A stretch of DNA of 23,640 nucleotides from Candidatus Woesearchaeota archaeon (GCA_964502865.1 CAZCXX010000010.1:1-23640), one strand, 5' to 3'; shown: positions 2,034 to 17,601, counted from the first letter of the stretch. Program-made: numbers and translations. Notes: generated by a model from the letters alone, not told the origin.

Positions 2034-2094
2034 GTTTCTCGACGCAAAGTGAAAGTTTTTAAAGTGCATCGCCTTGTGATTTCTATGAGGTGGT

Positions 2095-2168
2095 TATAGA
2101 TAATTCCTTTGATTAGAGTAGTGTTTTTGGAATTATCTATCACGAGAATTCTGAACAAATTATTATCC
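2095..2168 (+). repeat. stem-loop repeat family 2, copy A
   Basis: The stem is 2097-2107 tagataattcc paired with 2129-2139 ggaattatcta, around a 21-nt loop. It is followed by the conserved tcacgagaattc, 7 variable nt, and attattatcc. The whole element aligns with 11575-11649 (reverse complement) and 17263-17335. Confidence 0.8.
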
Positions 2169-2212
2169 TAATCATCAGAATTCTCCATACTTGTTAGAGG
2201 GTGCACAGATAT

Positions 2213-3446: not shown

Positions 3447-3911
3447 TTAGAGCAACTGATCAAGAATTGTTGCATACTGATGCGGAGAGAGGTAGTATCC
3501 CTCTTTGAGAAAGTGGGTGAGGAGTGAGCGTGCTTGCTTCTTTGTAAATATCTTCTTTTTTATTGCTAGGAAAAGAAGAGAGGTTGTTCTGTAATAAGGA
3601 ATTTCCATTGCTCTTGCCGCTTTCATTGCTCTTGCGTCGTCTATAATGATATTGTCTTTCTTTTCTTTTGCCAATGAAAGAGCAGCATTTTCTCCTTTAT
3701 CTAAATCAGTAACAATTTCTTCTTTAGGATCTTCGATAATAATCCATCTTTCGCTTATTGCTTTTAGGATAGGTTGACTCCCTCCTTTTTCATTGTATAT
3801 TACTTCTTCTTTTACTTTTTGTGGAATGCTTATTTTGCCAAAAAGATCCTTTAAGAGGTTTAACTGGTTAGTTTTTGCTAGTATAATTAAAGGAGTAGAA
3901 TCTGAAATCAT
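3447..3911 (-). CDS. PIN-like nuclease toxin (DUF3368 / COG2405-type)
   Basis: It has an ISDSTPLIILAK N-terminus, a GENAALSLAKE acidic motif, and IIIDDARAMKAARAMEI. This layout is typical of DUF3368 PIN-like proteins. Its start overlaps the upstream gene's stop (AATGA). Confidence 0.75.
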   Translation of the reverse strand: MISDSTPLIILAKTNQLNLLKDLFGKISIPQKVKEEVIYNEKGGSQPILKAISERWIIIEDPKEEIVTDLDKGENAALSLAKEKKDNIIIDDARAMKAARAMEIPYYRTTSLLFLAIKKKIFTKKQARSLLTHFLKEGYYLSPHQYATILDQLL

Positions 3912-4210
3912 TTAAGCAGAGAGAGGTCTTTTTTAAGATCTTCTTCGTCATATCCTGTCCAGTTTATGTTTTTCTCTTTTGCTAGGTCTAACATCTCCCA
4001 GAGGGTGACGCCGCATTCTTTAGCAGCCCTTCCTATAGATATCTTATGGGCTGCAAGATTCTCCAAGGCATTCTTTATCTTCCATTCCTTGAGTGCTTCG
4101 GCGAGGAGGCGTCTGACTACTTCGCTTCTGTCAATTTGCCATTTCTTTTCCACTGTTTCGAGCTGGCGTAACTGTTCTTCTCGTAATCGCACCGATATTG
4201 TCTCTGTCAT
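3908..4210 (-). CDS. antitoxin, ribbon-helix-helix fused to a UPF0175 (COG2886)-like domain
   Basis: ISVRLREEQLRQLE...RSEVVRRLLAEAL is RHH-like. LAAHKISIGRAAKECGVTLWEMLDLAKEKNI is UPF0175-like. The start is set at ATG 4210 because of the TATA at 4234-4245. The ORF-track start at 4315 adds 35 low-complexity residues. Confidence 0.75.
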   Translation of the reverse strand: MTETISVRLREEQLRQLETVEKKWQIDRSEVVRRLLAEALKEWKIKNALENLAAHKISIGRAAKECGVTLWEMLDLAKEKNINWTGYDEEDLKKDLSLLK

Positions 4211-4233
4211 GTTTACATTATAATATATCGTAT

Positions 4234-4245
4234 ACTTATAAAGTT
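4234..4245 (-). promoter_or_regulatory. TATA box for the RHH/UPF0175-PIN operon
   Basis: The minus strand reads aactttataagt. The core is about 25 nt upstream of ATG 4210. Confidence 0.6.
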
Positions 4246-4322
4246 TTCTATTATGCTTCGAATTCCCAAGACTTAGAAAACCTACGAGAATTTTGAATAG
4301 AGCAGAGCTGCCCATTAGTGTA

Positions 4323-4605: not shown

Positions 4606-4697
4606 CTATAGCAAACAACATTAATTTTCGTAGTGCTTGTGTTGTTTGCTAGATAGGAAATCACATAAAAACTACGGAAATTAAAGTGATTTCCTAT
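4606..4697 (+). other. two perfect 12-bp hairpins (H1, H2) whose loops are complementary to each other
   Basis: H1 is 4609-4620 paired with 4640-4651. H2 is 4653-4664 paired with 4686-4697. The H1 loop 4621-4634 is complementary to the H2 loop 4671-4684 at 13 of 14 positions, plus one T:G. Confidence 0.75.
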
Positions 4698-4699
4698 AA

Positions 4700-4788
4700 C
4701 TATAGCAGAAGACCTAAGTCCTTCCCCTAACATCAGGGATTGGCAAATCCTTGACGGAACGGGGAGAAACTTATGTCTTCTGCTATAG
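4700..4788 (+). repeat. hairpin repeat family 1, copy 1 (H3): candidate structured RNA or MITE-like element
   Basis: A 14-bp perfect outer stem pairs ctatagcagaagac with gtcttctgctatag. Inner helices are 4715-4719/4769-4773, 4722-4727/4761-4766, and an apical hairpin at 4733-4754. The flanks recur at 17438-17512. Confidence 0.8.
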
Positions 4789-6811: not shown

Positions 6812-7423
6812 CTACTTCCATATTTCTTGAATTGTAAAAGGTATCTTGAATTCTTTTAGCAACGCGGTAATTTCAGGGGAAACCTGTATACCTGCTATAA
6901 GTGCAGATGCAATTTTCTTTGCATGCACTCTTTGGAGCAAGCCTGAATGAGCATAGACCTTTTTCCCTTTTTTTGAGCTATATCCGATGAGTTTTCTCAG
7001 AAAATGTACTTTCTCTTTCTGTCTTGTTTTTGAAAGATCGTACTCTATTAGCACCAAATGCTCATTTTTTTTTGATTCTCCTTCGTACTTTCCATATAAC
7101 ACGAGAGCATACGATGCTATCTCGTTTCCAAGCTCTCTCCACTGATTGGCAGTAAGATCCCCGACTATCGGGACAATTGCATTATCAATACCTCTTAACT
7201 TCCACGTTTTGGAGGCTTTTAGCTCAAACTCATTTAATGCTTCTTTGACCAGTTCGTCAACTTTCTCTCTGTCTTTATCGTCAACGTCGATGAACAGGTC
7301 AACATCTGAGTCTTTTCTGGAATTGCCACGTGCAATTGAGCCGAAGAGCAGTATACGTCTTATTTTGTTTTTTTCTCTTTTGTCGAATAAAAGGGAAATA
7401 AACTCATAAATGTACCCCAACAT
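6812..7423 (-). CDS. minimal (Pol-beta superfamily) nucleotidyltransferase with an unassigned ~90-aa C-terminal extension
   Basis: It carries LFGSIARGNSRKDSDVDLFIDVD, the hG[GS]x9-13DxD motif. GGAGGA lies 8 nt upstream of the ATG. It starts immediately after the stop of the upstream gene. Confidence 0.85.
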   Translation of the reverse strand: MLGYIYEFISLLFDKREKNKIRRILLFGSIARGNSRKDSDVDLFIDVDDKDREKVDELVKEALNEFELKASKTWKLRGIDNAIVPIVGDLTANQWRELGNEIASYALVLYGKYEGESKKNEHLVLIEYDLSKTRQKEKVHFLRKLIGYSSKKGKKVYAHSGLLQRVHAKKIASALIAGIQVSPEITALLKEFKIPFTIQEIWK

Positions 7424-7813
7424 TTATTTTTCCTCCGCTATGCTTTTTAACTTATACAACGATTCAACTGCTTCGTTTGCCTCTTTCGCTTCTTTTTCTC
7501 TTCCATAGCACAATCGGTTACGCAGTTCTTCGATTCTTACAAGAAGCTCCAGTATCTCGTTTTTGCGTGGAAATTCTGCGGAAAATGTGTTTTGCGCTTT
7601 TTTTAGAGAAGCAAAAAATGAGTGGTTTATTTGGAAGCCGGGATCTATAAGGTTCTTTTTATGAAGGTAGAGAGCAAAGATGTTCGTCGCAGCTTCAGAG
7701 ACAGCAAAACCAATTATTTTCTGTCTTTTTGCTACCAGGTTCAGGCGCACCTTTTCTTCTATGTCATCAAGCAGTTCTCGAATGGTTTTTTCATGTTCTT
7801 CTGTGGATGCCAT
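7424..7813 (-). CDS. helical HEPN-like partner of the nucleotidyltransferase (no canonical Rx4-6H motif)
   Basis: It is an all-helical ~129-aa protein ending in ELRNRLCYG. This resembles the RNxxxH region of DUF86/HepT, but with Tyr in place of His. The start is set at ATG 7813 because of the TATA at 7833-7843. The ORF-track TTG at 7981 would read through the promoter. Confidence 0.5.
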   Translation of the reverse strand: MASTEEHEKTIRELLDDIEEKVRLNLVAKRQKIIGFAVSEAATNIFALYLHKKNLIDPGFQINHSFFASLKKAQNTFSAEFPRKNEILELLVRIEELRNRLCYGREKEAKEANEAVESLYKLKSIAEEK

Positions 7814-7832
7814 GAGTTGATGAGGGCCGCAA

Positions 7833-7843
7833 GGTTTATAATC
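7833..7843 (-). promoter_or_regulatory. TATA box for the HEPN-like/NTase operon
   Basis: The minus strand reads gattataaacc. It is 22 nt upstream of ATG 7813. Confidence 0.6.
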
Positions 7844-7849
7844 TTTTCT

Positions 7850-7882
7850 GTTATTAATAACATAAATTCTGTTATTAATAAC
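7850..7882 (-). promoter_or_regulatory. two copies of the perfect 12-bp palindrome GTTATTAATAAC, 21 bp apart (operator candidate)
   Basis: The copies lie at 7850-7861 and 7871-7882. The proximal copy ends 6 nt from the TATA box. Confidence 0.55.
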
Positions 7883-7982
7883 TGTATAACTTAGCTCTTC
7901 AGGAGGCGGCTGCACTTCCGTATCCTGAGCAGCGTATGGATCTGGTAAACGGGTTAATCTCTGCACGAAGTATCCTCCCAAA

Positions 7983-11510: not shown

Positions 11511-11574
11511 GCTTGAAGTCGAAACGTTTTTATACTTCAGGGTGGTTTTTGAAGTATGGTGAATTCTGGTAATT

Positions 11575-11649
11575 GGGATAATAATCTGCCTCGAATTCTC
11601 GTGATAGATAATTCCCAAAAACCTACTCCAATAAAGGGAATTATCTACA
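11575..11649 (-). repeat. stem-loop repeat family 2, copy B (inverted relative to A and C)
   Basis: The stem is 11605-11616 tagataattccc paired with 11636-11647 gggaattatcta. The reverse complement aligns over its full length with copy A. The element ends 2 nt before ATG 11650. Confidence 0.8.
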
Positions 11650-12045
11650 ATGAAGTACGAGCATGAGGGTTTTTTGGGTTTTTTTATCGTCGGGGTTGCT
11701 TTTGTGCTTCTTTTTACGTTCGTGTTCATTACTCTGTCAACAGGCACAACAGGGCTTTTAACAGGAAATGCAGTGTTTAAAGATAACACTCCATTTCCGG
11801 ATTCCAAATCGGGATGTACCGATAGCGATGGCGGAATTTATTCTTTGGTTGCCGGCAATATTACTTATCGCGCCGGAGGCGCTTATCTTCTAACTGATAC
11901 ATGTCGTGATCGTGAATGGGGTCGAGCAGTAGTTGTAGAATATTATTGTCGCGATGACAAGGTCCGTATTATTAATATTCCTTGCAAATATGGATGCAAG
12001 AAAGGTGCATGTTTTGATTCATATTATAACGCCAGTTTTAAATAG
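11650..12045 (+). CDS. small anchored protein consisting of a TM segment plus the six-Cys module
   Basis: The TM segment is FLGFFIVGVAFVLLFTFVFITL, followed by LLTGNAV. The module CTDSDGG..TDTC..VEYYC..PCKYGCKKGAC lies at 11815-12012. Confidence 0.7.
   Translation: MKYEHEGFLGFFIVGVAFVLLFTFVFITLSTGTTGLLTGNAVFKDNTPFPDSKSGCTDSDGGIYSLVAGNITYRAGGAYLLTDTCRDREWGRAVVVEYYCRDDKVRIINIPCKYGCKKGACFDSYYNASFK
12035..12045 (+). promoter_or_regulatory. TATA box for the deoxyhypusine synthase gene (overlaps the upstream stop codon)
   Basis: gttttaaatag lies 22 nt upstream of ATG 12066. Confidence 0.6.
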
Positions 12046-13079: not shown

Positions 13080-13472
13080 TTATTTTTGCACAAATTCTAC
13101 ATTTTCAAATTTTTCAAAATCACTATCACCTGTCAGGAACTTGATACTCATGCGTTTTGCGATGGTGTAGCCGATTGCATCAGGAATTGAAAGATTGCGA
13201 TGTTTTGTCTTCAAGTCCATAGCGTTTATGATATCGCTCCACGCAACTTTTACAATGCGCGATCGATATTTTGATGTAATTGAGTCAGATCTTTCTTTAG
13301 AGTGTTCTTTCTTGAGATTATAATTAAGTTCTGCAATGTTAAAAATCGTTGTTACCATTTGGACATCCAAATAAGGATCATATTTTGGATTTCCCTGAAT
13401 TATTTCAAAAAGTGCATATGTATCAAAAAAATACATGCCCCTATTAGTTCCAGTCTTATCTATCTGATTCAT
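13080..13472 (-). CDS. vapC: PIN-domain toxin (VapC-like)
   Basis: YFFDTYALFEI supplies the first acidic residue, and DAIGYTIAKRMSIKFLTGDSDF is the C-terminal PIN motif. ATG 13472 has GGAG 7 nt upstream and overlaps the antitoxin by 17 nt. ATG 13436 is an alternative start. Confidence 0.8.
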   Translation of the reverse strand: MNQIDKTGTNRGMYFFDTYALFEIIQGNPKYDPYLDVQMVTTIFNIAELNYNLKKEHSKERSDSITSKYRSRIVKVAWSDIINAMDLKTKHRNLSIPDAIGYTIAKRMSIKFLTGDSDFEKFENVEFVQK

Positions 13473-17262: not shown

Positions 17263-17335
17263 TATGGATAATTCTGTTGATTAGTCTTCGTTTCCAGAAT
17301 TATCCATCACGAGAATTTTGTACAAATATTATATC
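17263..17335 (+). repeat. stem-loop repeat family 2, copy C
   Basis: The stem is 17265-17276 tggataattctg paired with 17295-17306 cagaattatcca, a perfect 12 bp. It is followed by tcacgagaatttt, 7 nt, and atattatatc. It is collinear with copy A. Confidence 0.8.
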
Positions 17336-17437
17336 AATTAACAGAATTATCGATACTTGATGCGTGAAGCATGCACTGCGAAAAACCGCTCCTTCTGAGC
17401 GGGTTGCAAAACATTAAAAAGCTTCTGAAATAGATAA

Positions 17438-17513
17438 TTATAGTGGAAGACCTAAGTCCTTCCCCTAATAGCAGACGACTGAACGGGGAGAAACTTATGT
17501 CGTCTGCTATATA
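17438..17513 (+). repeat. hairpin repeat family 1, copy 2, ending 2 nt before the tRNA
   Basis: 17438-17468 matches 4700-4730 at 28 of 31 positions. 17482-17512 matches 4758-4788 at 29 of 31. The core differs, 13 nt here against 27 nt in copy 1. Confidence 0.8.
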
Positions 17514-17514
17514 C

Positions 17515-17601
17515 GGGCCCATAGTTTAGTGGATAGAATTCGAGGCTTCGGCATGCACTTGGAGAAACCTTGAGACCAGGGTTCGATTCCCTGTGGGCCC
17601 G
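17515..17601 (+). tRNA. tRNA-Arg (anticodon UCG) with a 15-nt intron at the canonical 37/38 position
   Basis: The acceptor stem is GGGCCCA/TGGGCCC with discriminator G. The D-loop is AGTGGATA. The anticodon stem is CGAGG/CCTTG. The T-arm is CAGGG-TTCGATT-CCCTG. The intron at 17552-17566 allows the helix CUUC/GGAG, flanked by 3-nt bulges in a relaxed bulge-helix-bulge. No CCA is encoded. Confidence 0.85.

Follow-up and report, generated by a model that had tools for sequence, protein, structure and literature searches.

Directly upstream of the tRNA-Arg gene of a Candidatus Woesearchaeota archaeon lies a short hairpin-forming sequence that occurs a second time on the same stretch of DNA (23,640 nucleotides, the whole of which is referred to here as the window). 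An initial annotation had interpreted this repeat as a module selected at the RNA level on the plus strand and linked to RNA genes, which raises the question of what the repeat is and how it came to lie beside a tRNA gene. Comparison with related genomes indicates that it is probably a non-autonomous palindromic transposon (MITE) that duplicates a TA target.

The window derives from a DPANN archaeal chromosome, its genes including those for TBP, ATP-dependent DNA ligase, deoxyhypusine synthase, GatB and an archaeal-type ProRS, with the nearest homologues of the latter found in Nanoarchaeota, Pacearchaeota and Woesearchaeota MAGs. The same sequence is contained in metagenome assembly ERZ27284378, while an exact protein look-up of the window permease returned no record. 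The only RNA gene identified in the window by ARAGORN and Rfam is that at 17515-17601. Features of the window and of the related loci (designated by L numbers) are listed in Table 1.

Table 1. Positions of the elements and genes discussed (window coordinates unless an L number is given)
Feature	Position	Strand	Remarks
Family A, copy 2 (73 nt, TA-TAG…CTA-TA)	17439-17511	+	3-4 differences in 73 nt to the six copies outside the window
Duplicated TA target	left 17439-17440, right 17510-17511	n/a	all eight copies flanked by TA…TA
Family A, copy 1 (87 nt, long-hairpin variant)	4701-4787	+	flanked by TA…TA; nhmmer E = 1.5e-17
Core of copy 1, TCAGGGATTGGCAAATCCTTGA (TCARG…CYTGA mini-hairpin)	4733-4754	+	nested in the element
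Diverged relatives of family A	L011 8534-8626; L012 7012-7106; L025 9698-9791, 9822-9914		same ends and two-hairpin plan
Family B (~92 nt, two hairpins, TATAG…CTATA-bounded)	4607-4698	+	abuts copy 1; homologues L009 6282-6374 and L005 5910-6056
Family C (two hairpins, ~100 nt)	2092-2192 (+), 11552-11650 (-), 17272-17355 (+); L004 895-939		
Family D	L011 and L016		TATAG…CTATA-bounded, two hairpins
Mini-hairpins	4733-4754; L016 9460-9760; L005 1210-1370, 5951-6000; L012 9082-9141; L017 11468-11545; L022 5466-5514; others		
tRNA-Arg promoter box (BRE/TATA-like), GCAAAACATTAAAAAG	17406-17421	+	same box in L017, L019, L022 and L016
tRNA-Arg(TCG), anticodon 17548-17550, 15-nt intron 17552-17566	17515-17601	+	Rfam RF00005, 53.7 bits; orthologue alignment
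ORF of 306 aa	17602-18522	-	between tRNA and ProRS; without Pfam domain

The repeat and its two copies in the window

A repeat search of the window aligned 4696-4736 with 17434-17474 (88%) and 4753-4787 with 17477-17511 (94%), and a count by eye upheld the flank matches given earlier (28 of 31 positions for 17438-17468 against 4700-4730, and 29 of 31 for 17482-17512 against 4758-4788). The core lengths that had been reported, 27 nt in copy 1 (4731-4757) and 13 nt in copy 2 (17469-17481), were both confirmed, as was the perfect complementarity of TAGCAGACGAC at 17469-17479 to the right arm at 17499-17509. This pairing was found to reach 12 bp (17468-17479 with 17499-17510) and to be the MFE pairing, copy 2 being composed of two tandem hairpins, the first at approximately 17441-17467 and the second formed by the perfect 12-bp stem. 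The alternative pairing of left arm with right arm that had also been put forward is instead a remnant of terminal inverted repeats; the element termini are imperfect inverted repeats (TATAGYRGAMGAC…), extending over 28 nt with 86% complementarity in copy 1 and matching at 10 of 13 positions in copy 2 (TATAGTGGAAGAC versus TATAGCAGACGAC). The right end of copy 2, previously placed 2 nt before the tRNA, was corrected to the TATAG…CTATA boundary at 17511, which is followed by 3 nt (TAC) and then by the first base of the tRNA at 17515.

The difference between the two cores is real, but the core of copy 1 is a nested mini-hairpin of another class and not a diverged or exchanged version of the core of copy 2. 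A close relative of this mini-hairpin, TCAAGGATTTGCTAATCCTTGA, was found to be inserted in the family-B element of L005, which carries a 54-nt insertion consisting of two mini-hairpins when compared with two uninterrupted copies. The two window copies therefore differ by the nesting of one repeat class in another, and copy 1 is an older or variant member of the family whose centre has been taken by an unrelated mini-hairpin.

No ORF is present in the 73 nt of copy 2 or the 87 nt of copy 1, and a reading of the sequence found no T-run of five or more on either strand of the element. Searches of both loci with Rfam 15, at gathering thresholds and at E <= 10, returned only the tRNA and noise (miRNA and snoRNA models). 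Among other candidates considered, a C/D or H/ACA sRNA was rejected upon inspection by eye, with boxes and pseudouridylation pocket both absent, as was a bulge-helix-bulge at the junction of leader and tRNA, the 3' trailer not being complementary to the leader. The element contains AGTGGAA, which resembles the core of the ORB repeat of replication origins; identity with ORB was rejected given a C-run in place of the G-string, the dispersal of the copies and the lack of orc1/cdc6 nearby.

Dispersed copies and an empty site

A gapped pattern constructed from the two conserved halves of the element was searched for in a set with a single genome for each prokaryotic species and in metagenome contigs. 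As the scans demanded 22 exact bases, the copy numbers obtained are lower bounds from a sample biased to conserved copies; the remaining 51 positions were unconstrained by the scan, yet were without variation. The one-genome-per-species scan identified three matching sites in a single Candidatus Woesearchaeota MAG (CAZKON01), in addition to two obvious chance matches in bacteria, while the metagenome contigs contributed three further independent sites, one of them sampled twice. All six copies outside the window are 73 nt in length, possess the architecture of copy 2 and lie in Nanoarchaeota (Woesearchaeota-like) genomes, with zero to one difference among themselves and a pairwise range of 0-4 in 73 when copy 2 of the window is included. 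Chance similarity of the two window loci was dismissed because of these six near-identical copies in other genomes, and the two loci are copies of one repeat.

Including those of the window, eight sites were identified over at least five contig sets, with unrelated flanks and with a GC content of 36-43% for the host contigs. Genes neighbouring the copies outside the window encode eIF2-gamma, a class II aminoacyl-tRNA synthetase (D/K/N type), DHODH, FKBP and HIT, and of the sites themselves, two are intercistronic gaps 4-7 nt 5' of an ATG, two lie at gene 3' ends, one in a divergent promoter region and one in the loop of a palindrome. A tRNA adjoins only one of the eight sites, with no copy outside the window near a tRNA or an Rfam RNA. 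The reading of the repeat as a module linked to RNA genes fails, therefore, because its copies occupy sites unrelated to such genes. The palindrome in question (L011 11775-11900) is larger than the element and has a 14-bp stem (CAGAGAATTCAACA…TGTTGAATTCTCTG), in the loop of which the copy lies, such that hairpin elements are nested.

Copies in viruses or plasmids were not identified in IMG/VR, GenBank phages or PLSDB, a lone 17-mer match in IMG/VR (L030) being a chance match. Near-identical contig pairs, compared for strain-level presence or absence of the element, showed no indels, and the only occurrences of its sequence in the text of the searched literature were chance matches to zebrafish primers.

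The state of a site before insertion could be read at a methyltransferase locus. Loci L025 and L027 encode an orthologous methyltransferase 80-81% identical to that of L006 and are followed by the same downstream genes, and both are without the element. Their empty junctions read GAAAACAAAGG-TAA-ATC-ATG and GAAAACGAAGT-TAA-CCT-ATG, respectively, while the filled junction of L006 reads GAAAACAAGAT-TA(TAG…CTA)TA-A-CAC-ATG. Exactly 71 nt have thus been gained, with the TA of the stop codon found on both sides and the original TAA regenerated by the insertion. A junction of this form is characteristic of TA target-site duplication, the comparison of L006 with L025 and L027 being the one true empty site obtained for it. 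The TA direct repeat could also be explained if TA belongs to the ends of the element.

Further features of this locus were observed. The methyltransferase ORF of L006 is lengthened by nine codons encoded by the element (YSGRPKSFP; 1181-1210), ending at a TAA between the two hairpins, and its homologues are 4-6 aa shorter. The gap between the methyltransferase and the next gene, 3-18 nt in L025 and L027, is longer by approximately 240 bases at L029 1200-1451, and these bases had been annotated as an ORF of 83 aa. These are probably another non-coding insertion, as they contain a TCAAG mini-hairpin.

A candidate MITE among related hairpin families

Insertion at TA with duplication of the TA is typical of IS630/Tc1-mariner-type transposons and their MITEs, of which plant Stowaway, pneumococcal RUP and Sulfolobus SM1 are examples. 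The small size of the element, its terminal inverted repeats, the TA duplication, the dispersed near-identical copies and the presence/absence polymorphism make it likely that it is a MITE of this TA-duplicating kind, which would insert at TA dinucleotides by means of a transposition enzyme supplied in trans. It resembles such MITEs in being small and non-coding, in its terminal inverted repeats, stable hairpin and TA duplication, and in having many dispersed near-identical copies at intergenic and promoter-proximal positions. It differs from them in its DPANN archaeal hosts, in its size, 73 nt being at the low end, and in possessing two tandem hairpins in place of one long hairpin. The TA duplication points to an IS630/Tc1-mariner-like enzyme acting in trans, although the ~180 kb of related sequence examined yielded neither a transposase, nor an element of more than ~150 nt with such ends, nor an IS630-like partner for the element.

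What is new here is the family, MITEs as such being already known in archaea. A Woesearchaeal genome is reported to be among those richest in MITEs (PMC11602168). With insertion as the explanation, an apparent tRNA-linked RNA motif would become a documented transposition event in very small DPANN genomes, for which the target (TA), the gain of 71 nt and the state before insertion have all been established.

The degree of conservation requires comment. The 73 nt are 95-100% identical, while other alignable orthologues of the hosts show 49-83% protein identity to those of relatives without the element. Judged by the sequences, such conservation exceeds what binding by a transposase would need and would imply either a very recent horizontal spread or an added function; a pure MITE model accounts for the near-perfect conservation across genomes only by recent spread.

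Correia elements (CREE) of Neisseria also duplicate a TA target, and like the element described here are palindromic and inserted near genes, the 5' regions of which are altered. The first nine bases of the element, TATAGTGGA, equal the start of the Correia terminal inverted repeat tatagtggattaa… (PMC5039591), but the similarity stops after 9 nt, with the 26-bp Correia inverted repeat (tatagtggattaa[c/a]a…) not found. Correia elements are 100-155 bp in length and have been described as unique to Neisseria (PMC5039591), and the likeness is one of analogy, not membership.

Family A belongs to a wider set of two-hairpin repeats bounded by TATAG…CTATA in these genomes. Its diverged relatives retain a T-C mismatch in hairpin 1 and show compensatory stem changes (GAAAGAC/GTCTTTC versus GGACGAC/GTCGTCC) and covarying loop-loop complementarity, the covariation being read from folds of each sequence, as MAFFT alignment across subfamilies puts the bulged hairpin 1 out of register. 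Families B to D have interiors unrelated to that of family A. The loops of family B are mutually complementary (TTAATTTTCGTAG / CTACGGAAATTAA), the sequence of family C reads TTATAGATAATTCC…GGAATTATCTATCACGAGAATTCTG…CAGAATTCTC, and a single 45-nt hairpin adjoins tRNA-Val in L009 (10688-10732). Taken together, TATAG…CTATA units comprise single hairpins, two-hairpin dimers and at least four sequence families.

The nested mini-hairpins form a class of their own, with the form TCA[AG]G-N4-loop-N4-C[TC]TGA, a 9-bp stem and a loop of 3-5 nt or longer. The class is strongly over-represented, 24 of the 202 perfect 8-bp hairpins counted across 183 kb from these genomes having the TCA[AG]G start. Mini-hairpins are often paired ~27 nt apart or arrayed, mostly just 3' of genes or tRNAs, and are candidates for terminators or RNA 3'-end elements, protein-binding sites or another mobile repeat. 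The reduced genomes studied here thus harbour tiny, nested hairpin repeats of several families, by which promoters, operon junctions and the ends of genes are remodelled, and such repeats should be masked before small RNAs or promoters are called in them.

The recurrence of TAG…CTA hairpin units in the families bounded by TATAG…CTATA is the main reason for retaining an alternative in which the element is REP/REPIN-like, a hairpin pair moved as single-stranded DNA by a domesticated HUH enzyme (IS200-like, RAYT) and not by a DDE enzyme. The element does consist of two adjacent hairpins of ~11-13 bp with loops that are mutually complementary and covary in several related families (TTGACC/GGTCAA, TTGAGCA/TGCTCAA, ATTTCACC/GGTGAAAT); every hairpin unit reads TAG…CTA, including the single unit of L009, both strands fold equally, and copies are nested in other hairpins, as in L011. 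Bacterial REPINs are likewise extragenic, ~70-100 nt in length, built of two short palindromes and of very high identity within a family. IS200/IS605-type insertion, however, produces no duplication and uses a target of 4-5 nt, whereas here a TA direct repeat was made by insertion and the bases 5' of TA are unconserved across 14 sites. In addition, no Y1/HUH (RAYT) gene was seen near any copy. REPINs have two REP palindromes in inverted orientation; in several of the families here, two tandem hairpins with complementary loops occur, with stems that are no clear inverted copies of each other. Ends of the IS200/IS605 type are unlikely on the same grounds, with no conserved 4-5-nt target and two dissimilar hairpins. 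REPINs have been reported as not detected in archaea (bioRxiv 10.1101/2021.07.10.451892), and a REPIN-like nature of the element was judged to be unlikely. A new mobilisation system may nevertheless, with modest probability, lie behind the TATAG-bounded hairpin superfamily, and near-identity across Nanoarchaeota genera could be maintained by a dedicated enzyme or by a host function.

The promoter and putative leader of tRNA-Arg(TCG)

While ARAGORN calls the tRNA of the window a tRNA-Ala(GGC), Rfam and alignment to intron-less orthologues support the earlier assignment as tRNA-Arg(TCG), with an intron after position 37. Orthologues without the element were found in four relatives: in L017, L019 and L022, relatives with a ProRS 79-80% identical to that of the window, and in L016. 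L019 also shares the order permease, tRNA and ProRS. The intron measures 15 nt in the window and 195 nt in L022, and is absent from two other relatives. In the L022 gene (5186-5452), which is overlooked by both ARAGORN and Rfam, the intron is located at 37/38 and contains several CATCACCTTCC-like hairpin repeats.

In these four relatives, the box CAAAGCATTAAAAAAC ends 22-23 nt 5' of the first base of the tRNA, and all eight tRNA genes examined in L009, L011, L016, L017, L019 and L022 possess an A/T box (consensus aAAG-cATTAAAAA/TTTAAAA) ending 22-24 nt before it. The window is different, and the earlier statement that no TATA box lies near -25 holds, positions -31 to -24 reading CGGGGAGA with no A/T box. 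The sequence gataattata (17434-17443), which had been singled out as the nearest TATA-like sequence, is part flank and part element terminus, the conserved TATA box being CATTAAAAAG at 17412-17421. From CAAAACATTAAAAAGC the window continues with 17 nt, the element and TAC; subtraction of the 71 inserted bases leaves 17 + 2 + 3 = 22 nt, as in L019. The element is thus inserted in the 22-nt spacer between the TATA box of tRNA-Arg(TCG) and the first base of the tRNA, and this spacing returns to 22 nt only under the TA-duplication model. For the MITE reading, this would be a copy that landed between a promoter and its gene. The spacer between permease and tRNA measures 266 nt in the window compared with 17 nt in L019 and has been expanded by at least two insertions, a family-C copy being found shortly before the tRNA promoter, at a distance of ~85 nt from the element on its 5' side. 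Directly 5' of the promoter box, a small G+C-rich hairpin (CCGCTC-CTTCTG-AGCGGG; 17381-17408) was observed that is missing upstream in the relatives.

The sole conserved promoter box is located 5' of the element, which makes a two-hairpin 5' leader of ~70 nt on the tRNA a plausible consequence of the insertion. Initiation would be expected at G17443-G17446, within the element and ~23 nt beyond the old TATA box, and read-through of the element is feasible because an oligo-T terminator is absent on both strands. In the predicted fold of the pre-tRNA, the leader forms two self-contained hairpins apart from a free acceptor stem, with 2-3 unpaired bases before the first base of the tRNA, and its removal would need a 5'-processing activity (RNase P). 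Such a leader is of note in the light of N. equitans, in which tRNAs are leaderless, promoters lie 26-27 nt upstream and RNase P is absent (PMC10100707): the tRNA genes of the relatives share this promoter geometry, with the same strict placement of the A/T box, whereas that of the window departs from this rule owing to the insertion. In the survey of PMC6380272, some RNase P protein was present in every archaeal genome. If the leader exists, this tRNA gene can be expressed only once a long structured leader has been removed, in a phylum one member of which has lost RNase P, and a still-functional tRNA-Arg with a 70-nt leader would show that 5' processing of tRNAs in these DPANN archaea has been retained or re-invented. 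The combined proposal, that TATAG…CTATA units are archaeal REPIN-like intragenomic replicators and that the tRNA-Arg copy is a natural experiment on 5' processing, seems rather unlikely.

No long leader would arise if the element carried an outward-facing promoter restoring a start close to the tRNA or to the ATG of L004 or L006. Three of the eight copies do end 3-7 nt before the start of these genes (first base of the tRNA, ATG of L004, ATG of L006), and the right part of the element, GGGGAGAAACTTAT, consists of purine-rich sequence and then a weak A/T box, in L004 20 nt upstream of the ATG. Correia elements are reported to make promoters at their ends (PMC2649163). Nonetheless, AAACTTAT is a poor TATA box that lies 16 nt from the first base of the tRNA and 17 nt from the ATG of L006, compared to 22-24 nt in the eight native tRNA promoters; the sequence at -31 to -24 of the window tRNA is as given above, and the L006 site is a junction within an operon where no promoter is needed. 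A promoter borne by the element was accordingly regarded as very unlikely.

The structured RNA module proposed initially, either a leader or a co-transcribed small RNA selected on the plus strand and functionally linked to the tRNA, would account for the near-perfect conservation of sequence across genomes. The folds are stable (z = -4.6 to -9), the conserved upstream promoter would transcribe the element at the tRNA, and the orientation is that of the neighbouring gene or genes in all four informative type-2 sites, a bias that is not significant (p ~ 0.06). Selection on the plus strand was not supported by comparison of the strands, as both fold about equally well in every copy (plus versus minus strand, -28.2 versus -27.2, -29.0 versus -29.1 and, for copy 1, -50.1 versus -53.3 kcal/mol), with the wobbles and mismatches of copy 1 slightly favouring the minus strand. 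Type-2 copies show a single polymorphism, T32C, by which a pair is lost on the plus strand, while on the minus strand a G:U results. Between the arms of copy 1 and the core/right-arm stem of copy 2, an A:T to C:G change keeps the pairing, but a change of this kind is silent on whether DNA or RNA is the selected form. Moreover, besides the single RNA gene among eight sites and the lack of an Rfam match, the element is absent from orthologous tRNA-Arg genes in four relatives, its other sites include a stop codon at an operon junction and convergent gene ends, and the diverged relative in L012 (7012-7106) is antisense to its neighbours. An RNA module linked to the tRNA is therefore highly improbable.

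That the two window copies are the att-site borders of an integrated element targeting the tRNA gene, as direct copies 12.7 kb apart with one abutting that gene might suggest, can be dismissed as having virtually no likelihood, since the housekeeping genes of the interval (DHH, undecaprenyl-PP synthase, deoxyhypusine synthase, GatB, permease) are arranged as they are in the relative L014, which has no copies, an integrase is absent from the window, copies elsewhere are solitary, and repeat and tRNA do not overlap.

Downstream of the tRNA, the 306-aa ORF has no homologue except itself among 5.8 billion proteins and is missing at the syntenic L019 locus, and so is either lineage-specific inserted DNA or a spurious ORF. 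Several toxin-antitoxin-like gene pairs (PIN, UPF0175, nucleotidyltransferase) were also observed among the housekeeping genes of the window, at 3447-4315, 6812-7981 and 13080-13472, and these differ from those found in syntenic relatives.
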